Source: Rhizodiscina lignyota | Lineage: Eukaryota | Assembly (NCBI GenBank): GCA_010015805.1 | Contig: ML978140.1 | Span: 310,001-374,000, forward strand | DNA: 64,000 nucleotides | Direction of reading: 5' to 3' | Shown here: positions 26,610 through 61,178 of the stretch, in pieces | Layout: every line of letters begins with the position of its first letter | How positions within the stretch are numbered: position 1 is the first letter of the stretch | The notes under the pieces: model-generated | Databases searched by the model: none | The model's input: the letters and a program-made list of their open reading frames with translations, nothing else | Told to the model about the DNA's origin: nothing | Made by a program: the position numbers and the translations under genes

Positions 26610-29215
26610 CTTTGATGCAATGTCAGAAATTAGGTAGAAGGTAATGAGTTGACTCGTAACTGCCAATTCTGTCAGTCATTGAGGGGGTTGAAACGCGATG
26701 GACTAGTGTTTACCTTGAGGGTCCGGCGGAGAGAGCGTGATCCTTCTCCGCGCGTCGTTGTGTCAGAACAGGTTGTGTTGGATGCTGAAACGTATCCTTG
26801 ACCGGATATACGAAAGGCGAGAGGGAGAATTGTCAGGAACAAGATGCCTCTCGGAGTGCTCCTCGTTCAATGCTGCGGGAGGCGGATGTGGGAGAACGAG
26901 AGGTCGTAACACGGTCGCCGAAAAATGAGCGTGTTGAACGGGGTTCGACGCAAGGTTCAAAGTCGAACAAAGAAAATAGCCACGCGGTCGAAGCGAGGTC
27001 GTCTGGAAATGGGCCGCACGAGCAGCGGCAAAGGGGATATTGGAATGTTGAGTATGCGTGTTCCTTTGTCGTGAAGCTTAAGAGTCGATGCTTGGTGATG
27101 GGAGGTGTGATTTGCGAGCTGCGTTGCAAGGTACCGCGTGAAAGTGGCCAATTGAAGGGTGTTGCGAGCTGTGCAGCGCGTGCAGAACAGGAGGAAGGGT
27201 TGAGAGCTGTCCCTGCACAGCTTCGAGGAGCTCCTGCGATGGCGGAAGAATTGCCGCGATGGCACAGCAGTGAGGAATTTGGAGTTGCGGGAAGCGGCGG
27301 TGCGAGAGGATGAGATGGTGTTGCTTGGATTTGGAAGAGGGAGGCGGTGATGCAGCGAATGGAGGAAGTTGGGGAGCACCTCGTTCCTTGGCTGAGCGAA
27401 CAGTCCGACGACGCGCCGCTGCTCAGCTCAAGCGTCGAGGGCGCGGGCCATTCAGAGGTGCAGCAGTAGTGCAGGATGCGCGAACGTGGGAAGCGTGCAG
27501 TGCGTAATAGTGCTTCTAATTTTTATTCCTCACCCCTGATACGGCATGGCCCTTTCGAGCATTCAATTACCTTACGGAGCACTGTTGCCACACAGCGTCC
27601 CCGCCTTCGCGATATGACCTGCAGCGGTAGCCAAGACTTTATTCAGCAAGACCAGGTGTCATCTTCTATCTCATGTATGTCACGACATGCGCCGGAAACA
27701 GTGTGGGAGTCGGCGGCCAGTCCACGACAGGATGGCAGACTCTCACTCCAGAGACAGCATCGCGCGCAAAGACCGACCACCGATGCAGTGCACAACTTCC
27801 GACAAGCACCAAGCCCAAGCACCAAGCCCAACACGTTCCCGACACGCCAATCCCAGCTAATACTTTCCATAATTGGCCCTTCACGCCACGAAGTGCGGCG
27901 CACACGCTCACGTTCCTCTCGCCCTCCTCTCCTGCTGCACTCGGCCACTGAGCTCTGGTTTCGTTGCACACCCTCTTCTCTGTGCCCAAAGCTGTAAGCA
28001 TGACTTGAACCATCGTACCCGCCAGACGCACTCGCTTTTATCCAGCTCGACCGCAAGCATGCGCCCGTATTGCCATTGCCCCGCAGTCACCAGGTGACCA
28101 GACCTTCCGCTCCCAACGCCTTTCCACGACGCCTTCTGGAAGATCAAGCCGGATCTTTTCGATCTCGCTCTGACTGCTTGGCATCGCAACGTCTCTGACA
28201 AATATTGCAGCCCTCCACGTGCTGGGAATTCGGTGGTGGGGTGGCTGTTGCCGTGTCATCCCTCCAACGTCTGCTCAGGCAAAGGGAAGTGCTGAATCCT
28301 GATGCTCCTGCTTTCATGTGAATACGACGCCTTGGCCGTCCCCTTCTCCGTCCTTCAGCCTCAAGCCTTAGCCGCACTTCAAGCGCGACCAAAATGTCGA
28401 GCCGCAGCCGCTCCGGCTTCGCCTGCCGCAACCAGCTCGACTTCGTTTCACGCTGGAGAGACGTGGAAGAGAAACACGAGCCTCTCAAAGCGGAAGGTCT
28501 CGAACTTACTCATTTAACTTTGTCTTAAGGAGCACACTTTCCTGGAACCGTGACACTTGGGACTCTTCGTCGTGCTCGCTTGCTCTCTGGGCAGGAGACG
28601 CCCAGCAATTGGACAAGCGTTCCAGATGCTCCCTGCGAGCCACGCAGTCACACGCGTCATCGCGTCGCGTCGACTAATTCGTCCAGTCTCAACAGGAGAA
28701 ATGTGGCGCCCCCGGCGCCAAGCGAGATGAATGCGATCTTGACAAGCGTGACAAGCCTGTGGGGAAATTTGATAAATGTGCTACCTGCGCCTGCGTCTTC
28801 TCGCCTCTTCTGTTCCCCTCTCACAGCAGCCAAAGCGCGAAACAGCCTCGAAGAGATTGCGTATATTTCGGCACATGTATGAGGCCGAGACTATCGGTAA
28901 GCCGAGCACACAACACAGTCGATTGCTTGTGCCCGGCTCTCAATTATGGAGACTCCGCTCAGGGCTTTGAGTTCACTGGGAACTCCGAAACAGTCTGACG
29001 AGAGACTATCCTTCGTCAAAGGTTTGTAAAACTGGAGACTCAACCAATCTCAATGCACCTGGCAGCAATGCTTATAGGACCATCTGCTCCCCTCTCATGG
29101 CATTCTCGCGTTCCTATTTCCGCACACCATTTTTCAAAACCTGAGGACAATTCCACCTGAGGCCATCACAATGGCGGGTGCTGCAGATCCCTCCTTCGAT
29201 ATCTAGTCTTTCTTC

Positions 29216-32200
29216 TCATTCCTCCGCTCCTATGAACTTGACGAGACTGCTTCTGGTAGTAATGAGAGAAGCAAGTCCACGAAGACTGCCCGCCCCCATC
29301 AGGTCGAATACTGCAACATCCGCTCCAAGCTCCTTCAGCAACCACGATCGAAGCTCGACTGCAACTAGAGAGTCCACGCCATATGCGTGAAGCGGCTTCG
29401 ACCCGTCGACATCATTCACGTCAATGCTGAGTGCTTTGCAGAGCTTTGTGACGAAAGCGCTGAAAATTATATCGGTGGCAGCGTCGTATGACTCCACTGC
29501 AGCCAGCAACAAGCTGTAGTTGACGGATTCTTCTGACGAGTCTCCGCCTCCAGCTTGCGTGCGGATCTGGAATAGGTGTCTGAAGATTGGATCAGACATC
29601 CAGCCTGGCTCATCGATACCTTCGGACCGTAGAAGCTCTGGAATCTCGATGCCGAGGGAGATCTGAGCCTTTAGCAGCAATGGCTGAGGCAGATTTGGAT
29701 TGCATAAGTCATCCAGTAACGCATGATACTCTTCCTCTCTCATTGCGGAGAATCCTGAGCCGCGAAGATGCTGGATAAGGTGGGGATTGTCGGCCACGTA
29801 TCCCACAGACAAGATCATTCCGAGATCTAGAGACGTTGCCTTTAGTCCATTCGACACGCGATATCGAGCGAGCGCGTCCTCATACGAGTTTCCTGCGCAG
29901 TAGTTTGCCTGCCCACGATTGCCTACGACGCCCGAGGTAGAAGACAGGAGTATAAAAAAGTCGAGCTCTTTTGGAAGGACCTCGTGCAAGTTGCAGGAGC
30001 CTTGGACTTTCGGCCTCACTGCCGTGTGCCAGTCGTCGGCCGACATATTTTCGAACACGGAGTCCTGCTGTACGTTAGAAATAGAATGCTAACTGGAAGC
30101 CTAGACGCACCCTTAGGACCATTGACCCTTGTATGCAGCCTTTGATTGGCGGCATACTGGTCAAACATTCGCTGATCACGGAGGCAAGAGATTCCTTGTC
30201 GCTAACATCACATACTGGTGTCATCGCCTTGACCCCTTGTCCTTCAAGTTCAGCTACGAGCTCTTTTGCTTCCGTTCTCGATGCACCTGAGCGGGAAAGA
30301 AGAATCAGATTGCTCGCGCCCCTTCTTACCATCCAGCGTGCCATGCTGCGGCCTAGTCCCCCAAGGCCTCCAGCGATGACATATGTGGCCTCCGCATCGA
30401 ATTGATACTTCGGCTTCCTGCTTGGGACGATCTGGTGCAACACACCAACATCAGCATTTCTTCCAAACGTCTCGAGCCATTGATAGTGGACACTCACCGG
30501 AACTTCATCATCATCATGCGGCTCGATCACAATCTTTCCCGAGTGTGACCCAGTCTGCATGTAGCGGAATGCCTCCTGGATTTTTGAGAATGGATAAATC
30601 TTAGTCGGACTTGGTTCCCGAATCTTCTCCTCCCTTATGAGACTCATCACGGCCTCAAGGATGCGTTTCAGATCGGGGCCGTCATGATGTGCCATGTAAT
30701 CGATGTCGACAAACTCAAAGCTGACATTAGTCTTGAATTTCTCCATATTCAACCGGGCGGATGAGTAAATGTCGACCTTTCCTATCTCGACAAATCTGCC
30801 AAACGGTGCGATGCAGTCCCAAGATGCTCGGAGAGCAGCTCCGGAAAGCGAATTAACAACGACATCTACGCCGCGGCGTTTAGTCATACGCTTGATCCCC
30901 GAAGCAAACGTCAAATCTCGACTCGAGAGAATATGATCACGAGGGATGCCGTAGGTTGACTCCAGCAAGTCGCGTTTTTCGATGGAACCCACGGTTGCGA
31001 ACACCTCTGCGCCTCTCAATTGCGCTAGCTGGATACATGCTTGTCCAACGCCTCCGCCAGCGGCATGAACCAGCACACTCTCTCCTTTTTGGATGTTCGC
31101 AATGTCGTACAGTGCTGCATATGCGGTAGCATATACTAGAGGAAGGGCGGCAGCGGCTGTGAAAGAGAAGTCATCTGGCATCTTGGTGATTGACGTCTCC
31201 AAGGCTCTAGCAAAAGTCTTCAATGTCCCTCGTACGATCCCGCACACTCGGTCGCCGACTTTGAATCCCGAGTTGACGCCAGTGCGAGTCACAATTCCAC
31301 TTCCCTCGGCACCTAAATAGTTACCGTTGACTTGGCCGAGAGAGATCATTATGTCGAGGAAGTTAAGCCCGGAAGCCATCACCTTGAATTCCACCTCGCC
31401 TTCGGGAAGCGACTCCTCATATACCGGGTCGTCATCGAACTGCAGCGTATCCAGAAGACCAGCCGAGCCGACAACGAGCTTCAGCGCCCTCTCTGGATCG
31501 CGAGCAAACTTTCCAAGCTGTGTGACAGACTGCGTTGTCTTCTCAAAAATTGCCGTGTTCATGTAGTTGGCCTCCACTACGCGGCCAATATGAAGGACTC
31601 CGTCAGATTCGAAAAAGCTGTTGTCCACCACCTGCCTGTCCCCTTTCGCGAAGATGGCATCGAATATCTTCATTGTTGCATTGGTGGCATGCTTTGAGTC
31701 CTCGATGCTGTCGATGGAGAGCGTGACGAACCTTAGGGCCGGATTCTCCGCTCGAATGGCTCTCGCGAAGCCGCTCACAAGTTCTGATGCTGGAATTCTG
31801 GACGACGCACCACCTCCCTGAGTCAGCCAAAGGATACTATCTGACGAGGCTACCATCCTCTGCAGGCTCGCATATTGCTCGCTGTTCATTCGGTCCAGGA
31901 ACGGCGTTTCAGTTTCAGGGATGAAAATGCAGAGCCTCTTCTCGAAGCTCTGTGTGGCAAGAGCAGAGAGCGGGCAAATTTCACATTGTGCAATGCTGTG
32001 ACGTGAAATCTCACGATGCAGACTCTGGGCAATATCTTTCTGGAATGGGGAGTTCATGTCTGCCACGATTACGGAAGCTGGCGGTGAGATTTTATGGACG
32101 GTTTGTGCAGTCGCTGTCGAGATCAGGACGCCATGGGCCTGACTTATCTCCTCCTCGTAGTCATGCAAAGAAACGTCAACACCGCTGAATCCGGTGCGCT

Positions 32201-35200
32201 GAAGGTGCGAGGACCAATCTTGGACACTGAGTAGAGGGCCCCATTCACGATAAGGCTCTTCTGATAGCCACCACCCTGGTGTCGTGCCAAAGACGAAGCT
32301 CGAAACGAGCAATGTGGTATTCGTGATTTCAAACAGGATGAGCTTCCCGCCTGGCTTCAGCAATTTGCGTACATTGCGAAGGGTTGCCGTAATGTTCTTT
32401 GTCGCGTGGAGCACATTTGCAGCAATAATGCAATCATAAAACTCCGCGTCAAACCCTTGCTGAACTGGGTCGCTCTCAATGTTCAGCGTACGGTACTCCA
32501 TGCGATCTTCACAAAAAGGGAACTTCTCCCTGGCCTGTTCGAAGAAAGCAGGCGAAATGTCCGTGAAATCGTATCTTTGAAAGCGAGCTGCGCCAACCTC
32601 GTTCCCGCCGTGGTGCATCAAGGTTTCCATGATTGGCACGGTTGCACCGCCTGTCCCAGCCCCGATCTCGAGGATCTTTTGGCCGGGATTTTTATGGGCG
32701 AGCGCATCAAGGTATCCACACAAACGAGCATATGCGATTTCGGCACCTGTTGCGAAGCGGTACACGTTCTCAGACAGCCTATCTCTGAACATGACCTGGA
32801 GAGGATCGACCTCGCCCGTGAGTATCTGCGGGAGGACTTTGCCTATGGCAACGCAAAGCTTCGCCTCCGGACTTGATTTTTCGAGCAGAGTTTCCAATTC
32901 GGCAAATCGGGCATCATCTGAAGCGATATCGTTCCATTGAGAGACCTTGCTGTAGATCAGGTCATTATGGCTGTACCTGTCCAACTGATGCTGCATCCAG
33001 GCGAAGTACTTTTGGTGGTGGGGTTTCATATCCTCCCTCTTGGTCTGTGTTTGTTGGTTAAAGTACCGCCTTATGTACATGTAGCAGATGGCTTCGCGGT
33101 CTCCGATAAACTGTGTTGGATCGAAGTCGAGAAGTCGCTGGGGCGCTTGGAACGTCTTAGTGGCAATTGCTGCGTCCACAAAGCTCGGGTCAGGCTTCCA
33201 GTCCACGTTGAAGCAGAGATGACGCTGCATGTTATTGTCATCACTCACACTGCGTCCCGACACGGCTGTCGAAATGAGGCCGTCTGCGACAACAAGCGGT
33301 TTCTTGGTCGTAGGATCGACAGCAATCAGAGATGCCTCAGCTTGACGAAGTCCGAGGAACGCGGCTTTGGTGCTTAACCTATAGACCTCATGAATCGCGT
33401 CGGTATCAGCAGCGATCCACAGTTCCCCAATGGTTGTCGGAACCACTGCCTCTCGAGCCTCACGACCGCCTCTAGTAAGCGCTACAATAACGCTCTGCAG
33501 AAGGCCGTCCAGCGTCGTCGGATGGATAAGATGGGGTTGAACATATCCGTGCGGCATTTTACTCTTAATATCAGCTGCCGACACTGTCGCGATGCTAGTT
33601 CGGTTCTGGCCGATGCGGACATTTGAAACAGTCTTAAACGTGGACCCGAAGTCAAACCCTACTGTTCTGAGGAGTTCGTACAGTTGCTCTGTGGAGACGT
33701 CCGTTGTGCAAGCATCTTCGGCGTCCGCGATTTCACGTCCGCACATGTCGCGAAATAAGCCGTCTTCCAAACCGTCGTCGACGGGCGTATACGCTTCTTC
33801 GTACTCGAGCTGAACGAGCCCCCGACAATGCTCTCTCCACTCATCACCCTCGTGGCTGGAGAGCTGGAACTCATGCCAAGCAAAAGATGTGCTGGCGGTG
33901 CTGTCTGCATATGGCCTGACCTGGAATTGAGTCTCCACACCCTCTGCGCTAGTTGGGACTCTCAATGCCATGTGTAGCACAACTTCTTTGAAGCGGATGC
34001 CTTTAACCTTCTTGTTCGGGTTGGCCAGGTGACGACTTGCTTCAATGGCCATGACCAACATTCCTGCGGCGGGATACAGAGTGCTTCCTGTAATCTTGTG
34101 GTCTTTGATCCAAGGATTTTCACTTATACGGATCCAATTCCTCCAGATCGCGTTGGCCTTTGGGTTCCAGTCGGGCACTGGCGCACCAAGCAGTTCGTGA
34201 CGAGGCATGCTGCGGAAACGGTACCCCTTGCTTATGCGACTCTCTGTCCAGTACGTCTTCGAATGGTTGAAGGCATAGCTGGGCAGGTCCACTAGAAGAG
34301 AAGGTGAACCGACATTGCGACCTCTCATATTGATGAGAGATAGATCAACAGGATGGCCTCGGCAGAATAACTGGCCTGCTGCCGCCAAGGCAGTTTCCGT
34401 CGCTTTCTCACCACGCTTCAACATAGACACATACTGTACGTTTTTGGCACTGGCTGTTTGTTCCATTATTTCTCTCAGCGGGCCTCGGAGCGCTCCATGT
34501 GGTCCGATCTCAAGAACATCCGTGAATGGCGTCGATGCACGTTGTGCTCCAAGTTTCTTCGCCTTTGCTGCCGAATCACTGAACAAGCGAGCCGTTGCTT
34601 CGGAGAATCTGACTGGAGACACCAAATTGCTTACCCAATACGCCGGGTCTTGGAGTTGCTTGTGCGTCGCGATGCCGCCGGTGAGAGATGAGTAAAACTT
34701 AGCCTCCCGCGACGGGTGGCTCATCGCACCTGGCTGGATATACAGGATAGCTTTGCGGTATTCATCCGCAATCGCCTTCATGTAGTCCGAGTGGTAGGCG
34801 TTGTCGACTTGCAGCTTTCTTGCGAAGATATTCTCCGCATCTAGAATGTCTTTGAGAGCTGCGAGCTTGTCTACGCTGCCGCTGATGGTGACATTCTTTG
34901 GACTGTTGATGCATGCCACAGTGAGCGACCCCGTAGAGGGCACCTCGTCGATCCTTGCGATGTATTCCAGTGCTTGATCGGCATTTAGAGCCACCGACAA
35001 CATTCCGCCCGGCGTTTGCTTAGTCGACAGCGCGAGTTCTGCCGTGAAGAGACCGCGGTAGTACGCCAGCTGCCACGCGCTCTCTCGCGAAATGGCACCA
35101 ACCGCGAAAGCCGCGGCAATTTCTCCAGATGAGTGGCCAACCACCGCCCCAGCAGATATCGACCAACTTTCAAGAAGCTCTACAAGAGCTATTTGAAGCG

Positions 35201-37476
35201 CAGTGCATAGTGGCTGGCTGTACATGGCGCTGTTAATAGACGTTGATGCCACATCTTTGGTCAACTCTTCAACCAAAGACCAACGACAACCAAGGTTATG
35301 AAGGCACCTATCTGCCGCCTGCAGGCTTTGACTGAATGTTGGGTATTCCATCAATTCCCTACCCATTTCGGGCCACTGTGCGCCTTGGCCAGTGAAAACG
35401 TATGCCAACTTGGCATTTGTATCGGATCGGACAGCTTTCGGCTTGCTCTCAAGCGCTTCCCGCAGTGCATCCAAGGAGTTAGCGACAATAGCAGCCCTCC
35501 AAGTAAAGCTTGACCTCTTGCATGCTAATGTATAGGTCAGGTCGTCCAAATACGAGTCTTCATCGTATATTTGCCCGGCGTTCGCAGCAAAATGCTCTCG
35601 ATATGAACTGTAGAGTCGCTGAATCCCATCCTCGTCGAAGGAGGATAACACGAAGATACGATTCCGAAGTGCAGGTTTCGCGTGGACTCCGTTCATGAAG
35701 GTGCCGTTTGTGAAGGTGCCGTTCGTACTTCCCACCGAGGCTACTACTGGAGATCCATGGACCGACTGGGATAGCACATCACCGTTCACTATATGAGCAT
35801 CACCATTGATCTTTTCCTGCTTCAAGAATTGATCTGTGCGCTTGACCGATTGCGCGACCTCGAGTGAGGTACCATTGACCACGGAGTGGTTCGTTCCACC
35901 GATAGCCATGGTTTCGTCTTCAATTGCAAACTGTGGAAGCTTTGGGTCGACGATCGTCCTATGTTTTCCGCTCAAACCATGGGAAGCCATATAATGATAC
36001 GCGTCATCCATGATCACATGTGCATTACTACCTCCATATCCAAATGAATTGCAGGACGCGCGGCGGATTCCGGTCGTAGGCCAAACTGTAGCTTGCACTG
36101 GAAAGGCTAGATTCCATTCTTGAGCTGGGATTTGCGGGTTGAGCTTCTCGAACCAAATATTCGGGGGTATTATGCCGCGCTCCAAGACGTAAATGGACTT
36201 CATCAGCCCTGCAATACCGGCAGCGCCTTCCAAATGCCCAATATTGCTTTTAAGAGCGCCGACATATAAGGGGTCATCTGGAGTCCGGTGCTTCGCAAAC
36301 ACGTCGCCAATCGCAGCGGCTTCGATTGGGTCACCCACTGGCGTCCCCGTCCCATGAGCCTCGAAAAATCTCGTCTCGTTGAAATCAAGCCCAGCATTCT
36401 TATAGACTTCGTGGATGAGGTCTGCTTGGGCTTTCTTCGTCGGCTGCGTAATACCAGGCGATCGGCCGTCTTGGTTGGAACCTGTGTTTCGGATGACGGC
36501 TCGTATTGTATCACCGTCCTGGATGGCGTCTGACAATCGCTTGAGGACTAAAGTACCGAAGCCTTCTCCACGAGAATAACCGTTTGCCCGGTGGTCAAAG
36601 CTGTGGCATTTGCCGTCTGGACTAAGAAATCCCAAACTCGACAGCGGAATAATCGTGTCCGGGTTGTAAAATAGATTGCACCCGGCGACAATAGCCTGGA
36701 CGAGAAAACTTCAGAACAACACTGTTGAGTGCATTGCATCAGAGCTCAGTAACTCACCATTGAAGCTTCTCTTAACTTTAGACTAGTGCAGGCCATATGT
36801 GCAGCATTGAGACTGCTTGAGCAAGCAGTGTCTAAAGTAATACTGGGGCCGTGAAAATCGAAGAACCAACTAACGCGGTTCGCCAGCATAGCTGTGCCCA
36901 CCCCTGTCGAGACGTACTTGAGCTCGACCTCTGGATCGCGACTAACAACGGTCTCGTACTCCCTTGTGAAGCAGCCTACATGCACCGAAGTCTTGGAGTT
37001 TATCGCTTTCGAAAGAGGTATACCGGCTATGGGCGCAAAACATGCTATTAGAGTTCGGCCTTCTCAAAGCTCTGTCTCATAGCTGAACTCACCATTCTCA
37101 AGGGCTCGATATACGCATTCGAGGAGGCCGCGCTGTTGTGGGTCCATAAATGCGGCTTCAGCTGGCATAATTGAGAAGAAAGGAGCATCAAAAGCGGCAA
37201 TGTTCTCACGAATGAAGTGAGCATGTCGGACGTTTGTCTGGTATTGCTTAGCCCAAGTACAGCGTGAACAGAGTGAAGGTCGAAGCTTACTGCTCCAGCT
37301 CGCTCTGGATCAGGATGATAGAACGCCTCGACGTTGTAACGGTCTTTAGGGGTCTCGGACCGTGCCGATCGCCCGGCGATGAGCATCTTGTAGAACTCTT
37401 CTGGACTTGTAGCGTCACCCGGGAACTTTAGGTCCAGTCCGACCACTGCAATCGGTTCGTTCATGTCTACGGCCAT
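29216..37476 (-). CDS. Highly reducing iterative type I polyketide synthase, KS-AT-DH-CMeT-ER-KR-ACP
   Basis: [54 protein letters not shown]; CMe[59 protein letters not shown]. Introns 37238-37290, 37027-37092, 36696-36757, 30432-30497, 30065-30110. Confidence 0.97.
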
Positions 37477-38839
37477 GATTGCTCTAGGCTTTGTGTTAAG
37501 GGGCCAGGTAAAGAGGATCTAGTTTATTGAATCTTTCCAAGTCACAAACATCTGGTCGATAGTGTGCTAATGTATCCTTTCTCTCATCCCCTGCGGACAG
37601 TTTTCAAGGGGCCGCAGCTTGAGCCTTGATTGTGAGCTTGTAACGCAAATGCGGAGACTCTGAAATGCTCGCTATCCTAAAGCTAAACAAATAAGAATCG
37701 CGTATGATGTCAGATTCTAGGCGTAGATCTACCCATCACGAAACTATTGATAGCCCACAATACCTTGCTAATCGAAAGTTAGAGCTCCTGTTGCAAAGCC
37801 GTAACTTGATAGGTAGGGTAGCCATTTGCGGGCCCAGCATATACTACAAACAGCACGCACTGAGATACTAAATGCATCCTTCATCCCGCAATGATGTGTT
37901 TACTCCTGGTGGATTTTCGTGAGAATTTGGCCTGAAAGGGAAACTGAATCATCGAAAATGGTGTCGAGTTCCTTCATCGCTATGGGCTGATTAATCAAGC
38001 CACAAGTAGGTCATCTTGAAGATCCTGCTTTGCTGGTACCGTTATTCGTTCCACGCAAGCGGGGATAAATCGTTGTGGGATATCTGCAAAAACAAACAGC
38101 CTCTAGAACTGCAGTCGAGAAAGTTGGGCACGGGAGGCGTTGAACGAATGACGGCAAACTGGGCAGGGGTTCAGCGCGCGGCACCTTTCCACATCTAGCA
38201 TGAGCGGATAAGGTACGATGCAGAGGAATTATTAGAACATTTAAAACAACGTTACCCGATCAATACTAGATTACATGATGCCTTAACATTGTAGAGTCTT
38301 AGACATGCTATGTAACTAATAGCTATCGCAAAAGTTCTAATAGTGGTACTAAGCTCTTTCTCCGTAGGATAGTAAGCTTATTGTGAGAAAACAATAGTGT
38401 TAAAGAATGGCACGCTAACCCTGTAATAATGTATAGAATTGCCTCTACTGCATGCCAGGGCTAAGGCTCTGGTTCAAAGAGGGTCTCAAGATTGCGAAAT
38501 CCTTCCAGGGTGGCTTTGGTCAATTTGATTAGATATACCAACCTCAATATCCTTGGCCTGACTGACCCTTCGGTACCAGCACAAGATGGCATCCTGCCGG
38601 TCTCAGCAGTGGCATCTGGCTGCATTGTCTCATTACAAGGAACGCGCTGCGTCGTATTCAAATTTCTGCTTGGACTCCCGATATTCGTATTGATGAGGGA
38701 ACCAAGGTACACCGACTATTCATAGCAGAGGATGGAATAATCTTTCTTTACGGGTTTTCTTCATTAAACGGGCCGGAGTCCAGAGGTAGAACTTTCAGCT
38801 CAATGATATCGTCTCGATCCTTAGTTTTGCATTAGAGAA

Positions 38840-40569
38840 ATGGCGTTTCCAAACATAGTGGCCTCTTGGTACACAACTTTCTCGCTCATGCTATTGGCCA
38901 CCGCGACGTCTTTCAGTCCGGCTGCTACACGAGCTTGTTCAGCGCTCAAGCACAGCTTTCCAACGAAGACATTTTCCCCAAAGGACGATGATTACACGCT
39001 GGCGTACAATCGTGCGTTATCTTCATGCCCCGGGTAGCTGGCCTGTGCTAACACGTTGACTGCCAGACTCATGGTCTAAAACTTGTGTCCTGCCACCAAC
39101 CTGCGTATTCGAACCGACCACAGCTCAAGATGTCTCTACTGCTCTCAAAATTGTGGAGAAATTCGCTGCGCACTTTGCCGTGCGAAGCGGCGGGCATATG
39201 CCGGTCCCTGGCGCCGCCTCGATCCAAGACGGTGTTCTGATATCCCTCTCCAAGATCGATCAAGTTGATCTTAATCCAGATGGCACGGCTACGATCGGCA
39301 CAGGTCTTCGTTGGTTCGAAGTATACGAAGAGCTGTCGAAACAGGGCTTGGCCGTGGCTGGAGGGCGCTTTGGAGATGTAGGAGTCGGTGGCCTGCTGCT
39401 TGGAGGTGGCGTAAGCCATTTCGGCCCTCAATATGGTTGGTCGGCGAACTGCGTCACACGCTACGAGATTGTGCTTGCCGGGGGAAGAGTGCTCGATGTC
39501 ACGAAAGAGAGCTCTCCCGACCTCTTCTGGGCACTTAAGGGAGGTTTGAACAACTACGGAATCGTGACGAGGTTCACACTCAAGACCTTTCCACTTACCG
39601 ATGTCTATGGTGGAGCTGTCATATACGATCCTTCACGCTTCGATGACTTTGTCAAGGCAGTTGCTTTCTATTCAACTCCAGAGGGCGGCATGTCTGACAG
39701 CCTATCCGCTATCGAGCCGGTAATGGCCTTTGTCCCCAGCTCTGGGCTGATACAGGGAGGCACGTTCCTATTTCATCAAGGCTCCGATGCCGCTCCTTCT
39801 TCTCTGGCCAACTTTACCGCCATTCCAGCGAACCAAAGTGACGCCAGCGTTCGGAGCTATCCCTCCTTCGTCAACGACACGCTCACACCTGAATTCAACA
39901 GCTATGCTTCCCGGTGGGTTCAAGACGCGCCACCGCTTTTTCTGTGAGAGGTGTCGCTGACTGGAGTAGGCAATTGTACTTCACTGTCTCGCTAAAGGCA
40001 TGCCCCCAATCGGTGTTTCTGGTTAACAACACCTTTGCTCCGATGGCGTTTTCTTCTGCATTGCTTAAGAAAGTCAGTGGGTTCACCACCACAATCAACC
40101 ACCAGCCGATGCCTCTGTCTTGGATAGAGGCAGCCCAAGCGGCTGGTGGAGATACTCTTGACCTCGACCCGGCAGCCGGGCCCTTCATTAGTGCGTCTGC
40201 TATTTCCATCAGGTATTGATAATCCTACCTGCTGACATGGCATAGTCGTCGGTATCTCATCTTTTTGGGACAATGCTGAGGATGACGATGCTGTGTTCAG
40301 CTTCCACAAAGTCGCTACAAAGGCCATCGTCACTGCCGCCGAGAAAGAGGGACTGAATTATCCGTTTCTATACGTCAATGATGCAGACCCGGTCCAGAAG
40401 CCTTTTCAGTTCTATGGAAAGGGCAAATCGTTGCCGAAGATGCGGACCATTGCAAAGAAATATGGTATGTTACTCCGTCCCTGGATCGCGTATCCTCCAT
40501 CACTAAGAGACACCAGACCCGGCCGGAGTATTTCACACATTGCAGCATGGGATCTGGTCGCTGTTCTAG
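38840..40569 (+). CDS. Secreted FAD-linked oxidoreductase (berberine-bridge-enzyme/VAO family)
   Basis: Signal peptide; intron 39012-39066; CVFEPTTAQDVS..FAVRSGGH (flavinylation His), GVGGLLLGGG, DLFWALKGG and C-terminal YVNDA..KKYDPAGVF after intron 40465-40516. Confidence 0.92.
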
Positions 40570-41039
40570 TTTTCATTACGCACATGTCAGATAGTTGTTC
40601 TTCTATGCACCGTTTCGTCGGCACGACCTGAGACACTATTCTTAAATAAGTACTTATGCCTGCCCTATCCAAAACACCACTTCTTGGAGAGCACAGAGCG
40701 ATGGCTCGGCGAGTTTTCATCTGTTCATATGGCGACAATGGCGACTAATTTAGTCTCTTGATGCTTTCATTTCAAGGAGGTAAGCACATTCGCATTCTCT
40801 ATGAAACTCTCCATTTAGAAACCCACCACCACCAAGACTCAAGACTTGATAATAAATATCCCGCATTTATTACGCGAACTTAGTTAACGATCATCATGCT
40901 TATTCTAGCCTATCAGATAGTCGATTAATCATACTGTGTGAGTAAGAAGCCGCCAAATGCCTTAAGAGGGTGTATTAGACAACGACATGCTCTATACCGC
41001 TCTATCCTAACGCCTTACACTAAATACAGGCTAGTAGCG

Positions 41040-41834
41040 CTATTGAATATACGAAGCCTTTGTGATTATATCCTGCACGCACTGTGCCATGTTTTCCGTT
41101 ACACCGTGAGGTGCGACGGGAACTTCGTGGCCCCGACCGTGATCAAACACCTTCTTCAAAACACCGTAACGAACACTAGATCCTTCACGATCGGTCATTC
41201 CATCAGCACAAAGGTCTATCAACTTTATAGACTCGCCCAGGAGATCATCCTTCCGACCGATTATGTGTGCGGTCGGGACATTGATGACTGCGCCGTCCTT
41301 TTCTGGGCTTAGGAATCTCGGGACACCGCGACGGAGCGACTTCTCACAGTAAGGGGCCCCGGCACAGATGAAGATTGCGAAGGTGAAGACTGGGGCGAGT
41401 GAGGGTCTAGCCAAGAGCATTGCAGCTAATGCGGCCCCTTGCGAAAACGCCATGACACCATCAAAGGGTCCTTCACTCGCAATATATGCGGCCAAGTCCT
41501 CGATTGCTTGCAGAATAGAGCTTGCGCTACTGGGATCAAAATATGCCCAGTATCCAGTTGTTGAAGGGAACAGAGTAGATATGCCTGGATATGCTAATTA
41601 GCTAGAGATCGAGACGAGGGGCTTGAGGGAGACTCGTACCCGGGGCAGCGGGATATTCTACGTTTCCCTCTACAAACTCGAATTTATGTACACTTGAACA
41701 TCCCAATTGTGCCCTCAAGGCAAGAGTTTGCATCGCGAAGACCTGAAGTGGCGTTGGTACTGGATTTTCTTGGGGGAATGCGCAGTACTTACGTCGTTAT
41801 TTGTCCCCATCCCATGTAGACAAAGGACCCTCAT
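41040..41834 (-). CDS. FSH1-family serine hydrolase (LovG-like trans-acting thioesterase/esterase)
   Basis: MRVLCLHGMGTN, EGPFDGVMAFSQGAALA (Ser), HIIGRKDD (Asp) and DHGRGHEVP (His). Introns 41743-41792 and 41585-41639. Confidence 0.92.
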
Positions 41835-42348
41835 CTTGATTGAATTGTGAAACCAAGAAAACTTTGTGTTCACGCTGATAAGGTGGCAATCGATAGCTTT
41901 AAAATACCAGCTCTGAGATCTTGGTTCAGATTGTTAGACGACGGAGACTAATGAAGGTCAAAGCGGACTGACAGAAGGGGCTGCGATTCACTTGCCCCAA
42001 CCCTCAAGAAAGTAGGTATTCTATTGGACTCGCAGGCATAAATTTAGCCACTGGTTCGGCTATCTTTTCCAAAGAGAATCCAGACCATCTGCACGCACGC
42101 GCCTATCTCACGTTCGGCGTGGTGATAACACATCAGACGGTGTGCACATCCCTTTATACGAAGTCAAACCAGATAAAGATAAAGCTCATGCAGCTATATT
42201 TATCTACCAGCGCTGAGGTAAACGGCCGCTTCAGGCGCAGTGGATTCTTGGTTGTCATCTTTACGTGCTTGCGATTTGGGAAATATGATAGTAACACTAA
42301 TCATTCATATGTAAGCTCTTCAGGTGTGATACACACGGACAACAGCCC

Positions 42349-44021
42349 CTAGAGTAGTTTCCCATAATAGCTCGCAAGTGATATGACACCTAACGCAGTG
42401 CAAATCACTATCAACCACTCGTCCATGTTGGTAGAACGGATCCAAGACATTCGTGCATCTGCTGTCTGAAGGTGCATGGGTGACAGCTCGACGCCGCGGC
42501 CACCGTTTAGACTTGTAGCAGCAGCTGACTTCTCGCTTGGGTCGTATTCAAACCGTAGATTCCAGTCGTACATGTGCTCTTCAATCAAGTCGGCGGCTGC
42601 ATGTTTTCTTCGCGCTGCGACATGAGCTATGCGCTGCATACGGTGAACGTTGCGTCTAAACTCGCCGCGGGGATCAGCAAGGATTACGGCTACTGCGTTC
42701 GAAATGTCCGCTGGCTGGAATTTGTCTTTGCTAACTTCCACGGCGACACCAGCGGCCTTCAAGCGCATGCTTTCTTGGATCTGGTCTCCGTAGACGGGCA
42801 TCGATACCATAGGGACTCCATGGAAGAGTGCCTCGTTTGCGGAAGAAGGTCCGGCGTGTGTGAGAAAAACGCGGGTAGATGAATGATCAAGGACTGCTCG
42901 CTGTGGGGCATAGTCAAGGAAAAGCCAAGATGGATGTCGATTTTCGAGAAGACCTGCGAAGGTTTGATTTGTTGTGCCGTGAACAGGATAGTTCTTCGAC
43001 TCGTCAAATTGTTTTCGAGCAATCGATCTGATCGCCCAAATGACTCCGTCGATGCGCTGTTCAAGGAGAGCAAGCGCAAGCCCAAGAACAATTTTTTCCA
43101 GTTTCTCCGCAGTCAGTATGACATGTGTACCGAAAGCAACGTAAACGACGCTGTGTTTGTTGACCAAGAATTGCTCGGTTGCGTTGTCAAGCGGTAACCA
43201 GTCGTCCGCTAGAATGGGTCCCGCGGCTTGGACCAAGGGTGGCAGATCTTTGGCGGGCTCTACGCCGAAGAAATTATTGACCAAGAGAACGTGATCGGGT
43301 TTTGATTTCATCAGAGGTATTGTCTTGACGCCAGCCGCTAAGCGCATACGACGAGTCCAGAGTAACAAGTCCAGCAGGTGCGGTCCCCACCTCAACAGAA
43401 ACATTTGCTCGTACAAACGATCCCACAGGCTGGCATTTTCGCTTGTAAGGCATCGTAGCTGAAAGCCCGGTGATCCAGGGATCCACTTCTGAGGTAGCAT
43501 GAGCCAAGGCATCTGGCACCACATTTGTGCGAGTGGGATACAGTGCTGAAGGGCGACATCCTTCGCGGCCTCCACCTGGTAATCGGCAAAGATGAAATCC
43601 GGCCGGCTCTTTGCAATGACTTGGTTCAAGCCTTGATACGTCTCGGTCCAGAAAGAGTCGTAAAATCTTTTCGTTCTCAAGATGTGTCGCCTCCCGCCAT
43701 GGGTGGAATTGTCCCACCGGCTGAAGTTTAGATACAAGCGTTCATCCTCTTCCGCTGTCACGGCGCGACCAACGATGTGAACTGTAGAGACGAAAGGGTA
43801 AGGGGCGACCAAGGTCTCCCTCTCCGCTAATGTTGCGAACTCGATAACATGGCCGCGCGCGGCCAAGATGGCGCAGATCTCCAAAATAGGTGCTACAACT
43901 CTATCAGCATATGCTGCCACTGAAGCGGCGAAGGCAGACCTGAATTGGTGGAACCTCCAACGGTGACAACGACAAGTATCTTGTGCGATGGATGAATTAC
44001 GTTTGATTGGACGCTCATCAT
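42349..44021 (-). CDS. UDP-glycosyltransferase, CAZy GT1, with C-terminal hydrophobic anchor
   Basis: Probable exon 1 [27 protein letters not shown] (ATG at 44021), intron 43893-43939, then [21 protein letters not shown]. UGT signature YAPQRAVLDHSSTRVFLTHAGPSSANEALFHGVPMVSMPVYGDQ. Confidence 0.93.
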
Positions 44022-44606
44022 GGCCAAGTGTCGAATCACTCCGTTCAGTCACGGCGCAAATATGAGATTGTGCCTCCATATCCATCCGTGACAGTCACTC
44101 CTATATATAGAGCAAAGATATCGCATTAGATATGGGTCGTGTAGATGATGGACGTTAATATTGGGCGATCCGGGGGATGGTGTATGGTAAGTAACTTTTT
44201 CTTCCCGAATCCCTACCTAGGTATATTACGATCTGACATTTCCCTGCTCCAAAACCCATGTACTGTATATACATAATCAGGCCTCGGCCGGTGGTCGGCC
44301 GCCCAACCTCATTGACCAATATCCGCGTTGAGCAATCAGCCTTGGTTCCCCTGCAAATCCATATATCTTTTCTTCCTACGCCACTTTTTGATGAGTAAAG
44401 TACGATAAGCTCTAGCGAGTAAATAGAAGCGGGCCCACTCCATGTCCCAAAGCATGCCGTTCCGTCGATCCAGTCAATCGAATACGTTGCATCGACCTCA
44501 ACGGACATGTCTATGTGGCTCTTCTATCTGTTTTCTTCATTCCCTTGCTCTACTATTGCAGATCTGACGCATTCCTCTTATTAGCGGTCGTCTGAGTTCT
44601 ATAGGG

Positions 44607-46731
44607 ATGATGAGGAAAGCTGCTTTGTTCAGTTTTCGATCCAAACGACATGAAGGAGGAGCAGCAGAAACGTCTTCAACACTCGATACATTGTCGTCCC
44701 CAACAGCTCAGAACGATACCACAGGAGAATCCGAAGAAGACACGAGCTCACATGTTAAGGGATGGCGACTACACGTATTGACTGCTGGGTATGGTCATTG
44801 GTGAAAAGCTTCCGGACAACACCTTTGTACTCACGGCTTGCAGGCTATGGGTTGCTCTTTTTCTGTCCACTTTAGAAACGACAATCGTCAGCACCTCTCT
44901 AATCTCTATAACGGATGCAATAAATGGTTTCCGTTTGCGGGATTGGATAGTCACCGCATACTTGCTCACGTATACCGGTATGGACTGCTTCAGCTTCTCG
45001 GGACAATGATCATATACTTACAGAATTGTGCAGGATTCTTGGTCGTCTACGCCAAATTCGGAGATATCTTCGGACGCAAGAGCATGCTGATCCTCGCTCT
45101 TCTGATCTTCATTCTTTTCTCCATACTCTGCGGAGCTTCTAATCATATCACTGAGCTGTACGTATTTTCCCAGCCTTCAAGAAGGAGTTCTGGATACTAA
45201 ATAGACCTGCGAAGCATCCTATTCCGTGCATTCCAGGGCGTGGGCGCCTCTGGCGTCTACACCATGATCATAGTGCTTGCCCCAACATTGGTACCAAAAG
45301 CCGAGTTCGGAAATTATATTGCCATCGTTTCCACTGTCTTTGTCGTTGCCAGCGTTCTTGGGCCAATCCTCGGGGGTGTAATAAACCATCACTCATCGTG
45401 GAGATGGATCTTTCTTTTGAAGTGAGTACTTGTGGCAATGACAACTCCCAACTGTACATGGTGCTGAGTACTGACATAATTGCAGTGCACCAGGGGGCGC
45501 CGTCGCCATCGTTATCCTCCTCTTCTTTTTACCATCTTCCACTCCATCGCTAAACTTCAAGCTCCGGTCGCATCTGCGACGCAAATTTTCGAAAGCGGCT
45601 CTCGCGCGTATAGATGTACTTGGAATGTTTTTGCTTTTGGCTTCGTCAATTTTGCTGGTCTTTGCCTTAGAAGAAGCTGGCTCACGATATGCTTGGAAAA
45701 GCGCGCCGATTATCACTTCACTACTTCTGGCCGGCATTCTCGGCGTGGGCTTTGTGTGCTGGGAACTTGTACTCCAGAGATCATCCTTCAAGCAGGAGCC
45801 CGTCTTCCCACCGAGGCTTCTTAAGGGTCGCTTGGTTGCTGCAATGATGTTGTAGGTGAGGATGAGCTTTTGTGGAGATACGAGGCTAATAATGAGACCG
45901 CGCGCTAGAACAGCCTTCTTTATCGGGTTTCCTTTCGTTGCAATTGTCGTCAACATTCCCCAACGAGCCCAGGCCGTCAATGGTCGATCACCTTTTGGGG
46001 GTGGATTAGTCCTCCTTCCCCTCTTACTCGCATCTCCTCTTGCAACAGCGCTCTCCGGCATCTTGACCTCGAAGTTTAAAGTCCCGCCTTTCTATCTCAT
46101 CTTCTGCGGATCAATCCTGCAACTTGTTGGAGTTGGCCTAACCTGCTCGCTTCCGATAGACACCACGTCGAGAATCGCGCCGCAACAGTACGGGTATCAA
46201 GTAATCATGGGTCTAGGCTTTGGTTTAGGTTTGAGCACCATTCTGGTAATTGCACCTTTACTTGTGGAAGGATCGGATCTAGGTAAGAGCAGAATTCGCT
46301 CTACTCGGTGGACAGTGCTGATGTACTTCTCAACCGCGTAGCCGTCACAATGGGAGCGGTAACACAGATTCGCGTATTGGGAGGAACAATCTCGCTGGCG
46401 ATTTGGTATTTATGCGCCCCGCTCCCATGATATCTGAATCTCTTGCGTCCCTCCCTTTCACTTCCCGTCGGACTGACTCAGATGTAGTTCAACAATCCTC
46501 AACAACCATCTCAAAGGCAAACTCGCCCACTTGATCACGCCTGCGCAAATACAAGCGATATCGGAGAATCTATCGTCGATTCAGAGCCTGTCGCCCACGG
46601 AGCGAGCGGCAGTGCGTACCGCGTTTGCGGAGGGCTACAACAGGCAAAATATCTTCCTCACTGTATTCTCAGGGCTATCGCTCATCGCTTCGTTGTTCTT
46701 ATGGGAGAGGAAACCACGAGCTGTCACTTGA
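44607..46731 (+). CDS. MFS drug:H+ antiporter (DHA2/14-TM type), probable product exporter
   Basis: Multi-exon gene with LFLSTLETTIVSTSL, WIVTAYLLTYTG, YAKFGDIFGRK, FRAFQGVG, LGPILGG..WRWIFLL, NIPQRAQAVNG and C-terminal AFAEGYNRQ. Confidence 0.92.
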
Positions 46732-47784: not shown

Positions 47785-48365
47785 CTATATAGCGCCATTG
47801 TCACGTAGTAGCTGGACGATCTCTTTATACCCCTCATGTAAAGCCGTCTGGAGCGCTGTACCTAATTGCCCCCATTTTATATTGACATCGGCGCCGTTGT
47901 CAAGTAGTAGCTGCACAATCTCCTTATCCACTCCAAACGAGGAAGCCGCCTGGATCGCTGTACCGTACTTCCCGCCTTGTATATTGATATCGGCGCCGCT
48001 GTTGAGTAGTAGCTGCATAATCTCCTTATGCCCCCTATGTGTGGCCGCCTGGAGCGCTACACCATAGTTTCCTCCTTGTACATTAACGTCGGCGCTCTGG
48101 TCGAGTAGTAGCTGTACAATCTCTTTATGCGCTCCAGCTGAGGCCGCGCGGAGCGCTGTACCAAGGTATGATTCCGTTTGCATATTGACGTCGGCGCCGT
48201 TCTTGAGTAGAAGTTGCATAATCTCTTTATGCTCTCTTCTGAGGCTACTATGAGCGCTGTCTCGTGGTGATCTCCCGCTTGCATATTGACGTCGGCGCCG
48301 TTCTCGAGTAACAGTTGTACAGTCTTTTTATGTCCTCCAGCTGAGGCCGCGTAGAGCGGTGTACC
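47785..48365 (-). repeat. Tandem ankyrin-coding repeats (about 99-102 bp period) with strong DNA-level similarity
   Basis: The motif atattgacgtcggcgccgtt and its variants recur near 48283, 48182, 48080, 47981 and 47879; protein unit TAL-x-AAS-x-GHKEIVQLLL-x-NGADVN. Confidence 0.9.
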
Positions 48366-51113: not shown

Positions 51114-52716
51114 GATGTCTAGAAAATGAGCTTGTGTAGAGAGGATTTATGGCTGTCTGCAGAGTTTGATGTCAGACAAGGCCAACACTCGCCAGTTTGT
51201 CGCCCCGGCTGTACAACTGAAATTGAAAGTTGCGGACACACAGACGAGGCTGCAAGCGGAGTGTGTGGCAGCTTTATTGCGGGTTGTCGTGACAGCACAG
51301 CAGCTACAGCCAGCCACTAGGATACAGCTGAAACGTGCAGCTGCAGCCTCGCGAGGATGCGAGAGAGAGGGGCCAGACATTTTTGCCGCACACGGAATCC
51401 ACAGCAACGCAGTTACCAGAGGAAGGAGACTTGTTCCTAGTAGACTTGAGTACTGCACAGCGCTGCATGGTAAGCGTGGAGAAGACAGCGGCAAGGAATA
51501 AGCTACTAGTGAGGGAAATGAAGGGACTCTGAGTAGTTCAGCAATGGTAGGGTGAAACTACGACCTCTAGAGACGAGAGAATGGGGTAGGAAGATGGAGC
51601 TTAATACAGAGCATCCAGATACGCTGACTAGCACGGTAAGTACGGGTGCAATGCCGAAGCTATAAAGCAGATAAAGCCAGGCCCCCGACGCTTAATAGTC
51701 GCCTATCCTATCCCGGTTGGGGTTGTGACATCGACCTCATTACCGATGCGGCGAGCAACATCTACACCTATGTAGCCGAAGCAGACGACACAATCCGCCT
51801 ATACCACAGATGTTCACGAGCTATCGGTAAAGAGCGTATCACGAATTTTGCAACTTCACGACTCAGCATTTCTGTGATGAGCCCGAGTTGACCAAGGCCC
51901 TTTCAGCGATAGAGACGCGCAACGGACAGAACATTTCTAACAAGGACCTCCTGAAGCACTGATCCAAAGACTTCACAACTTGTGGTGTCATCAAGAAGGC
52001 CTCTTCAATCTATGGCCTAAGTCTAAGGAACTTCTCCTTCACGAGCCAAAGTGAAATCCGGTTGGCAAGGAACCCATCCCTACTATCAGGTAATACCAGG
52101 GCACGTTTCGTCACAAGCTGGCACACGAGAATCACCTGAAGCATCCCGAACTCCTTGACGAAGATGGAGTTTTCACAGAGAAGGTCGCTCGTACGATAAT
52201 GTGCTTCAAGGCAAACCTGTCGATGTATCATTCTTGGGTTCGCTAAAGACCACCAAGGACATCACGGCACACCCAGCTCTCATGTATGAGTCCGGCTCTC
52301 AATTCCATAACTCTTGAAATAATCTATTGAATGCTCGGAAGTCAGGCACTGAATGGCACTTCAGAAGCTTCGCGGCTTGTAAGTGAAGGTTGAGGTGAAG
52401 CGTTGAAGGGCCAGAAGAACCGTCAGGCCAGACGTCAAAGCTAATATATTAATGTGACGCTCGTGTGATATGTCAAACAAATCTATAGCCGGCTGCAACT
52501 CTCTAAGGTCAAAGCAGCAGACTCACATTTTTGCAGTGCGTAGAACGATAGATCCGAGCAGGTGGGCAATCAAGTCAAGATTACGAGCTCAACTTCTAAG
52601 ACATGCAAACCATTGCATTGTTTTCAACTACGTCGTGGAAGCAACATAATCCTACTTGCTCTATTTTGTAGCAAAGTCCATTTGACCTATGTTATGCTTT
52701 CGCAGAATGCCATCGC

Positions 52717-55245: not shown

Positions 55246-55827
55246 AGCTGCAATTTTGTAATTGAAGAGTCGTCGGTGTTAGCTGGAGGTGATAAGATGT
55301 TAGCAATATTTACAAAGAGGTAGTTTTCGACCTTCAGAAGGATACTGCGACAGAGCAAATAATTGTGGCAGCAGCAGCCCAGTGCAACTCAGCCGTGTTA
55401 AATCGCCAAGATGAGTCACGTTGCCTTGATAGACACTGTGTGACCGTGAATGGGAATTACCACGACTGAATAGCACCGCCTTCAACGCTGATTCCAAAGC
55501 GTCTAGCGGTGTTCGAGTCACAATTTGAGGCTGATGATGTCGACAGGCATTCTCAAACTTCGCCCCAAGTGCCTGGAGCTCGATGTCGAGTCGGAAAGTG
55601 CCGTGTTAAGCGAGAGGCCATCGACAGGGGGACCGCGGCTTCCTTCAGCCCTATCTCTACTGCACTTTAGCCTGAATATCCTTGCCAAGAGATTTATTGT
55701 GGATTTTATCGTTATCCGTCACGCTTATTCTATCCAAATCGTTTCTAGCTAATGCATGGTATCAACGAAGCTGATACGGAAGGTAAGCCCTCAAGCAAAG
55801 CTCTCCAAGTGCGCCGCCTGCTACCAT

Positions 55828-56896: not shown

Positions 56897-57306
56897 TGTG
56901 AGACAAGATGAGAGTTTCTAAGGTGGCGAGCAGAAAGCGAGAAGACTGGAAGGAATGCAGGAGATTTTTGTCGCGAGAGATTCAAGGGCGCGACGCGTTT
57001 TTATCTGCAAATCCATTGATCGGCGGCAAAATTAGTTGCTCATGACGATACGTGGGGCAGATGGACCGCGCTCCGGGAGAAATGGCAACGAGTGCCTGCA
57101 TTGAAAACACGACTCGCATTTACCCGCTCCATACACAACTCTCGCTCAAACCGCTGCTACCGGCGTGGCACGAGGCATCCAAGATAGCTGCCTCCCTTTT
57201 CTGCAACACGTCCTGCATTGATCCTTTCGGCTATCTGCGCCGGCTGCTTGACAGCTCGTAGCTCCCCCTGTCTGCACCGAGGTCTTCCGATCTAGATGCC
57301 GGCACC

Positions 57307-60894: not shown

Positions 60895-61178
60895 GACTGT
60901 GATGGTCGGTATTTGTCCTGGTTAGGCTGATGCCCGTTGGATCTGATCGGGCCTGACGAACGGATTTCGTTGGAAATGAGAAATGTCGGGCGTGACAGCG
61001 CCGTATGCATCAAGGCAGTTAAAAATTATGACAACCAGCCATGGGACTTCTGGTTCTTAAAATCTCGTTCGTGCCAGTCGTCGTGCATCCTGCTTGAGTT
61101 AGGCGCCCGCTTCTCGACCGTCGCCGTGCCACATGCAACCCACTTAGTTGCAGACGTATCTTACAATAAATGCCCCAT

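Follow-up and report, generated by a model that had tools for sequence, protein, structure and literature searches.

A compact cluster in Rhizodiscina lignyota pairing a highly reducing polyketide synthase with a glycosyltransferase, and its candidate pyrone glycoside product

Five apparently intact secondary-metabolism genes lie side by side in the fungus Rhizodiscina lignyota, at positions 29216–46731 of the 64,000-nucleotide stretch analysed here and called the window (contig ML978140.1 of assembly GCA_010015805.1, positions 310,001 to 374,000). As judged from the listing of open reading frames (ORFs) and from Pfam scans, they encode a polyketide synthase of the highly reducing kind (HR-PKS), an FAD-linked oxidase, an FSH1-family hydrolase, a glycosyltransferase (GT) and a transporter of the major facilitator superfamily (MFS). 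Although uncharacterised, the cluster belongs to a known type, the core of which is common to the pathways that lead to fusapyrone, proliferapyrone, epipyrone and the verapyrones. On balance, it is probable that the genes form a five-gene cluster of the kind that combines an HR-PKS, an FSH1 hydrolase, a membrane-bound GT and an MFS pump, and that they follow the course to a pyrone hexoside proposed here. The product would most likely be a methyl-branched 4-hydroxy-2-pyrone polyketide to which a hexose is attached, probably by a C-link at C-3, and which is then oxidised by a secreted flavoenzyme. Among the classes of product considered, a pyrone glycoside appears to be the best supported.

The proposed pathway would begin with the synthase, which would build a methyl-branched, partly reduced chain and leave the last two or three ketides (the terminal tri-ketide) unreduced. 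The FSH1 enzyme would help to off-load this chain as a 4-hydroxy-2-pyrone, much as ProG does for ProF in proliferapyrone biosynthesis. A tail-anchored GT, working at the cytosolic face of a membrane, would then transfer a hexose onto the pyrone from a UDP-sugar donor; the hexose would most likely be C-linked at C-3, as in epipyrone, the verapyrones and fusapyrone. Finally, the MFS pump would export the product, and the secreted flavoprotein oxidase would act late, for example by converting an alcohol to an aldehyde as Sol5 does.

The genes of the cluster

All five genes were found where a first-pass annotation of the same DNA had placed them, with their frames open, and both outer coordinates of the cluster (29216 and 46731) proved to be exact stop codons. 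The ORFs of the GT, the synthase and the oxidase each correspond, across their exons, to a public R. lignyota protein (P0001, P0116 and P0236), which assigns the window to this dothideomycete. The gaps between the five genes measure 0.5–1.4 kb, and there is therefore no further gene inside the cluster. The gene of the iterative HR-PKS (29216..37464, minus strand) was delimited by Pfam and by mapping the public model P0116, of 2599 amino acids (aa), to the window. Its stop codon occupies 29216–29218 and its ATG lies at 37464, with an alternative in-frame ATG at 37476. The domains follow in the order ketosynthase (KS), acyltransferase (AT), dehydratase, C-methyltransferase (cMT), a structural ketoreductase (KR), enoylreductase (ER), KR and acyl carrier protein (ACP). 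In P0116 they are represented by the Pfam families ketoacyl-synt, Ketoacyl-synt_C, Acyl_transf_1, PS-DH, Methyltransf_12, NAD-bd_HRPKS_sdrA, ADH_zinc_N, KR and PP-binding. When the catalytic motifs were read directly, all were present, GVDSL included, which bears out the earlier statement that the synthase is complete down to its cMT and ER domains. Equally, Pfam found no release domain beyond the ACP on the full P0116, and nothing at all past PP-binding, as had been claimed. A full reducing loop with a cMT, ending at the ACP, is the arrangement expected of synthases in pyrone-glycoside clusters, and the Rhizodiscina enzyme has it.

The public model differs from the reading frame in one respect. 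Within 30075–36710 (minus strand), P0116 excises two in-frame stretches as introns, one in the KS–AT linker and the other between ER and KR, and the frame stays open through both. The match of the gene to its own model is only 84% identical over ORF residues 1–420 because the model removes in-frame stretches.

Homologs of the synthase were sought with residues 1–420, and bacterial modular PKSs fill most of the 120 matches listed. Among these matches are at least eight fungal relatives that are collinear at full length, and six of the eight share 58–65% full-length identity with the Rhizodiscina enzyme. These six are P0169 (a partial protein, 65%), P0205 of Neurospora sp. (61%), P0180 of Penicillium hispanicum (60%), and, at 58% each, P0230 of Colletotrichum fructicola, P0200 of Microsporum audouinii and P0209 of Elaphomyces; together they span several ascomycete classes. 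The other two are P0216 of a Chaetothyriales sp. (54%) and P0220 (50%), which apparently travels with a Fusarium-type GT. P0230 was automatically named "alt5" by its source, a name that we take to be that of the alternapyrone synthase. Literature searches, with subscription papers outside their scope, returned no paper on the locus or on the product of these relatives.

The FSH1-family serine hydrolase (41040..41834, minus strand; three exons read; ~230 aa) was matched by Pfam FSH1 at E 7.4e-19 and has 843 relatives at E≤0.001. The protein begins MRVLCLHGMGTNND and carries its nucleophile within AFSQGA. Its triad of Ser52, Asp117 and His157 (ORF numbering) is invariant in a 14-row alignment, in agreement with its earlier identification as an FSH1 hydrolase, and an adjacent FSH1 enzyme with such a triad is a second feature of the pyrone-glycoside cluster type. 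The protein also contains a 13-residue insertion, GMTDREGSSVRYG (~41130–41170, minus strand), just ahead of the conserved FDHG.GHE block; none of the 13 aligned relatives has this insertion.

Divergent from the synthase is the gene of the FAD-linked oxidase, a member of the VAO/PCMH superfamily (38841..40569, plus strand; 503 aa). Splice sites were read for its five exons (38841–39011, 39067–39915, 39969–40189, 40247–40453 and 40507–40569), and the protein matches the public P0236 at 100%. Exon 1 encodes a hydrophobic N-terminus of the sort typical of a signal peptide, and the enzyme is accordingly predicted to be secreted. The ~1.4 kb between the two divergent genes (37465..38840) holds no long ORF in the sequence and ORF lists, and it is presumed to be their shared promoter. 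The oxidase had been described as being of the berberine bridge enzyme (BBE) type, which is a loose description. FAD_binding_4 is the sole Pfam domain detected in P0236 (E 1.3e-26) and the RSGGH motif is present, as in Sol5 and other BBE-like VAO oxidases. In contrast to these, the Pfam BBE domain (PF08031) was not reported at E≤0.01 on the full-length protein, and the likeness of the C-terminal DPAGVFHTLQ to a BBE motif is by eye only. The Cys of bicovalent flavoenzymes is, on reading by eye, apparently absent. The 55 PDB relatives at E≤1e-10 include the FAD oxidoreductase 9p1o, mitomycin radical oxidase and EncM, and two further relatives at 47% identity were automatically named "solanapyrone synthase" by their sources. 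Solanapyrone synthase, Sol5, is a BBE-like oxidase that oxidises the primary alcohol of a pyrone polyketide (PMC11375781).

The MFS transporter (44607..46731, plus strand) has eight exons in the first open model, of 567 aa. Open spliced models of 562–572 aa were obtained with seven GT-AG introns, and hydropathy of the first model revealed 14 hydrophobic segments. The earlier assignment as an MFS pump is sustained by these models, with the Pfam evidence itself being weak (matches of MFS_1 and Sugar_tr on one exon).

Kinship with known pyrone pathways

The first system to which the cluster can be compared is that of fusapyrone (FPY) in Fusarium mangiferae. In the available text of PMC10512364, the FPY cluster comprises PKS40, a UDP-GT for which a C-GT role is proposed, an FSH1 hydrolase, an MFS transporter, a dehydrogenase and a cytochrome P450 (P450). 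FmFpy6 is there a dehydrogenase or oxidoreductase and FmFpy4 is without description; deletion of the PKS and co-expression of the genes are shown, while the role of the GT is proposed. The lineages in which that text reports FPY orthologues include the FIESC and lateritium complexes. Like FPY, the Rhizodiscina cluster has a release-domain-free HR-PKS, a UDP-GT, an FSH1 enzyme and an MFS transporter side by side, and the FPY product, as the accessible text describes it, is a methyl-branched pyrone C-glycoside. Unlike FPY, it has no recognisable counterpart of the P450 (FPY7), the dehydrogenase (FPY6) or FPY4 as that text names them, and in their place it encodes a secreted FAD oxidase. The first-pass annotation had pointed to a likeness to FPY; measured against the available text (PMC10512364), the HR-PKS, GT, hydrolase, MFS and P450 that it ascribed to that cluster are correct, and an "FAD enzyme" is not mentioned there, the text giving a dehydrogenase or oxidoreductase for FmFpy6.

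A second system, found in Fusarium proliferatum, is the cluster for proliferapyrone (pro, PKS16). Of the related systems covered here, it is the one with biochemistry for synthase, hydrolase and GT alike. According to the accessible part of PMC11441467, ProF alone produces the alpha-pyrone and ProG raises the yield approximately fourfold. The flavin-dependent monooxygenase (FMO) ProI then hydroxylates C-3, and the membrane-bound ProJ subsequently O-glucosylates the C3-OH with UDP-glucose, ignoring the 4-OH; pro-like clusters of the PKS16 type are also reported in Neonectria and in Xylona heveae (same part of PMC11441467). The resemblance lies in the HR-PKS, a release-assisting alpha/beta-hydrolase, a membrane-bound GT and a transporter. 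The differences, as far as that part of the account reaches, are that the FMO ProI, the Baeyer–Villiger monooxygenase (BVMO) ProE, the GH3 beta-glucosidase ProL and ProK are absent from the Rhizodiscina cluster and that ProJ is an O-GT. The locus was considered as a pro orthologue and rejected, there being no counterpart of ProI, ProE or ProL in Pfam scans of the window ORFs of at least 150 aa and of the cluster ORFs; the same scans gave no match to an FMO, BVMO, GH3 or P450 family.

In a third group of pathways, those of epipyrone (epnABCD, Epicoccum nigrum) and the verapyrones (Verticillium dahliae), review passages and reference titles describe a membrane-bound GT that C-glycosylates C-3 of the pyrone with galactose, and V. 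dahliae yields alpha-pyrone 3-C-galactosides. These clusters share with that of Rhizodiscina a compact HR-PKS arrangement with a membrane-bound GT, and Epicoccum is likewise a dothideomycete. The flavoprotein oxidase sets the Rhizodiscina cluster apart, none being mentioned in those passages. The rarity of GTs in fungal HR-PKS clusters, on which the case for novelty had earlier leaned, is a dated notion, as the available accounts of the proliferapyrone, epipyrone and verapyrone pathways, all with membrane-bound GTs, appeared in 2020–2024. The earlier interpretation is right in kind, and it overstated the novelty of the cluster.

The glycosyltransferase and the sugar linkage

The GT gene (42349..44018, minus strand) consists of a short exon, 44018–43941, and a long one, 43893–42349, and encodes a GT1/UDPGT-family protein of 540 aa identical to the public P0001. 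Its last ~20 residues are hydrophobic, and the enzyme is predicted from this tail to be tail-anchored and membrane-bound. The family assignment, already made in the first-pass annotation, was confirmed by Pfam (UDPGT) and by fold: an AlphaFold model (pLDDT 83) gave GT-B matches over both domains in Foldseek, the top one being 6j31_C (E 2e-19, TM 0.80). A sequence search against the PDB matched only the donor-binding half, with human UGT2B7 the best at E 1.3e-16 in the UDP-sugar signature region.

From 8000 candidates scored, 115 relatives of the GT were obtained at E≤0.001. The nearest share 63–66% identity, and the next, at 56–61%, come from Penicillium hispanicum, Aspergillus fumigatus, Elaphomyces, Microsporum, Hypoxylon, Nemania and Xylona. 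Fusarium and Verticillium relatives follow at 49–52% (proteins of these two genera range over 42–52% in all), and a more distant set lies at 39–45%. A FastTree phylogeny was built from 46 of the 115 matches, with named or long rows kept and partial rows and a bacterial outlier dropped. The Rhizodiscina protein falls within a 12-row clade (support 98), whose sister comprises nine rows from V. dahliae, V. longisporum, Fusarium FIESC, F. phyllophilum, F. sarcochroum and NRRL 66182 (joint support 96); the V. dahliae protein P0038, at 49% identity, is among them. Further away in the tree is a clade of 20 rows that includes other Fusarium proteins. The GT therefore has the characteristics expected of the pyrone-glycoside cluster type, namely UDPGT family membership, a place in the same tree as Fusarium and Verticillium proteins and a hydrophobic C-terminal tail.

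The Fusarium proteins at 49–52% identity come from lineages said, in the available text on fusapyrone, to carry FPY, and their clade is sister to that of the query; these matches are presumably FPY2. Even so, the Rhizodiscina locus was rejected as an FPY orthologue on two grounds, with FPY represented by those Fusarium lineages. Its GT lies outside the Fusarium clade, and its PKS is 50% identical to P0220 versus 58–65% to its own relatives. Among the accessory genes, there is no P450 haem motif in the window and no dehydrogenase gene beside the PKS, where Pfam scans found neither a short- nor a medium-chain dehydrogenase. The idea that this is a "reduced" FPY system consequently fails, with the GT in a separate sister clade and the PKS having collinear relatives of its own.

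Another difference between the GT clades is found in the short exon (43941–44018), where the query reads GGSTNSAP versus GG[FY]THAAP in the distant clade. The Asn of this motif occupies what we take to be the position of the catalytic His of GT1 enzymes; no N-terminal catalytic His was found in the query at this position, as set by sequence alignment. In the 46 of 110 matches with a readable N-terminus, the place is filled by Asn in 29, His in 16 and Ala in one. Besides the query, the FIESC/F. sarcochroum group of Fusarium and the two V. dahliae proteins are of the Asn type. An acidic 4-hydroxy-pyrone may need no catalytic base, and it is conceivable from the alignment that the Asn/His split marks C- versus O-glycosyltransferases of pyrones.

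C-glycosylation at C-3 is favoured for three reasons: the cluster lacks a hydroxylase for the C3-OH that ProJ needs; the nearest labelled neighbours of the GT come from lineages that make C-glycosyl pyrones; and the GT has GGSTNSAP at the place where GG[FY]THAAP stands in the distant clade. Certain points weigh against this preference. The supports of the GT tree are SH-like values from FastTree, with no bootstrap. The "C-GT" label of the Fusarium/Verticillium clade derives from taxon distribution and reviews, and the Fusarium and Verticillium relatives are putatively FPY2, ProJ or the verapyrone C-GT. Moreover, O-glycosylation keeps some probability because a PKS16-type cluster is reported in Xylona heveae, in the accessible part of that work, and the only Xylona GT seen (P0022) lies inside the query's clade.

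A less likely course is that the same cluster makes an O-glycoside or a glycolipid-like acyl-glycoside. FSH1/LovG-type enzymes are thioester hydrolases, and the FSH1 enzyme could free a hydroxy-acid that is then O-glycosylated; LovG itself is cited in the available text of PMC10512364. Alternatively, the oxidase could oxygenate the pyrone, as might be suggested by its PDB relative EncM, an oxygenase, and the GT could then act like ProJ, which comes from a related type of cluster and is, in the accessible part of PMC11441467, a membrane-bound O-glucosyltransferase. The same source records the PKS16-type cluster of X. heveae that, with P0022, bears on this course. Set against it are the lack of an FMO-type hydroxylase in the cluster, the observation in that part of PMC11441467 that ProJ left the pyrone 4-OH unglycosylated, and the GGSTNSAP motif that the query has in common with the Fusarium/Verticillium clade, without the His of the distant clade, the C/O meaning of this motif being putative.

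Gene linkage, genomic setting and significance

Relatives of the genes were compared to see whether they travel together. In P. hispanicum the PKS (N7459_001737) and the GT (N7459_001740) are three locus tags apart. PKS P0220 and GT P0030, the GT being from the Fusarium-type clade, are each recorded on a contig of 72471 nt and are probably linked there. Likewise, GT P0006 and FAD protein P0237 both list 16445 nt, and GT P0004 and FAD protein P0242 both list 34043 nt; P0237 and P0242 are the two best full relatives of the oxidase. A survey of metagenomes yielded 22 loci, most of them shorter than 8 kb, of which 14 carried a true family GT (36–43% identity). FSH1 genes occur in two of the 14 (L008 and L009) and MFS genes in two (L005, weakly, and L008); L009 shows GT–FSH1. 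At 782–7899 of L008, a GT (42% identity), an MFS protein, an FSH1 protein and an RTA1-like lipid-translocating protein are encoded one after another. Beyond the GT the contig continues for 781 bases, so that a PKS may lie outside it. The grouping of the five genes exceeds chance, because the PKS and GT tags are close in P. hispanicum and because GT–MFS–FSH1 and GT–FSH1 sets recur in two metagenome loci.

Other observations pull the opposite way. The shared-contig matches of the PKS, GT and FAD pairs are indirect. The best PKS and GT relatives have widely separated locus tags in Elaphomyces granulatus (V8E54_000892 versus V8E54_006980) and in Chaetothyriales sp. CBS 135597 (g2743 versus g5437), so that adjacency by locus tag was seen in one of the three named genomes with both tags. 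No PKS match was found in any of the 14 metagenome loci with a family GT, most of which are short. As for the oxidase, the 120 matches listed contain nothing close to it in P. hispanicum, A. fumigatus or Xylona, and it is therefore an accessory gene, a lineage-specific addition that accompanies the GT only in the closest relatives. The core is therefore PKS, FSH1, GT and MFS, the linkage of which is frequent yet not universal.

These same observations bear on the suggestion that the neighbours are independent, with the PKS and hydrolase making an unglycosylated polyketide and the GT, along with the MFS pump, being a general detoxifying or housekeeping enzyme that happens to lie next door. This would fit the wide occurrence of GT relatives at 56–65% identity (one A. 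fumigatus sequence cluster has 70 members), the two of three named genomes with unlinked tags, and the family-GT metagenome loci, 12 of 14 without FSH1 and all 14 without a PKS. It would also fit the lack of an in-cluster regulator and of a shared promoter word: the three upstream regions have three 8-mers in common, where the null gives 1.3 on average and 23 at most, and they share no word of 9 or 10 nucleotides. Independence nonetheless seems improbable, as a PKS and a GT are again neighbours in P. hispanicum, and probably on the contig of 72471 nt, GT–FSH1(–MFS) groupings recur in L008, L009 and the FPY and pro clusters as set out in the available texts, and few of the metagenome loci are long enough for a PKS to be seen.

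Regulation was addressed by six-frame motif scans of the whole 64-kb window, in which neither a Zn2Cys6 pattern nor a P450 haem motif was found, in line with the earlier claim that the cluster holds no P450 or intact transcription factor. The lack of a pathway-specific transcription factor, together with the insertion in the FSH1 protein that its 13 aligned relatives do not have, could be taken to mean that the cluster is silent or decaying in R. lignyota and makes no product under any natural condition. With five open reading frames and every catalytic motif that was checked intact, this is very unlikely, and a functional pathway to a pyrone hexoside is preferred.

The one sequencing run found for this sequence is of DNA, with contigs identical to the window and no joints; no RNA run was listed. 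On the right, the cluster is directly adjoined by an NLR-type gene (47785–51146, minus strand) with NACHT_N, NPHP3_N/NACHT, DUF7069 and ankyrin repeats, divided among four ORFs that overlap or adjoin one another and differ in frame; a tRNA ligase also lies on this side. The left side has 2.5 kb in which there is no long ORF, together with genes for a low-complexity protein, SURF4, an MFS transporter, argininosuccinate synthase and a mitogen-activated protein kinase kinase kinase (MAPKKK). The ORF-poor stretch at the 3′ end of the PKS (26700–29215) has no ORF above ~230 aa and no Pfam match, and the G+C content of 0.564 in 26–28 kb is the maximum of the neighbourhood. A pseudogenised regulator or P450 in this stretch (26.7–29.2 kb) was considered and rejected, there being no Pfam match and no motif. 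The flanks (1–24500 and 52717–64000) are housekeeping in character, with an M49 peptidase, an ammonium transporter, the MAPKKK with its MEKK4_N domain and argininosuccinate synthase, as well as SURF4, the tRNA ligase, a Fyv6-like protein and a cyclin, and the cluster is therefore a small island amid core genes.

It is also conceivable, although doubtful when taken as a whole, that the clade of tail-anchored GTs with Asn in place of His consists of dedicated, base-independent pyrone C-GTs. The PKS–GT set, which has relatives in Eurotiomycetes, Sordariomycetes and Dothideomycetes, dermatophytes and Colletotrichum among them, would then make an undescribed and widely conserved C-glycosyl pyrone, which in Rhizodiscina and its nearest relatives might be matured outside the cell by the secreted flavoprotein oxidase.

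If expressed, the cluster of this little-studied wood saprobe should yield a new polyketide glycoside, and the known members of the compound class, namely fusapyrone, epipyrone, the verapyrones and the proliferapyrones, are reported to be antifungal, antiviral or phytotoxic. In most respects this is an ordinary candidate biosynthetic cluster. Two features take it beyond routine genome mining: the collinear PKS relatives, at 58–65% identity across several ascomycete classes, for which no assigned product was found, and the clean Asn/His split of the GT family, which might serve as a marker of C- versus O-glycosylation.

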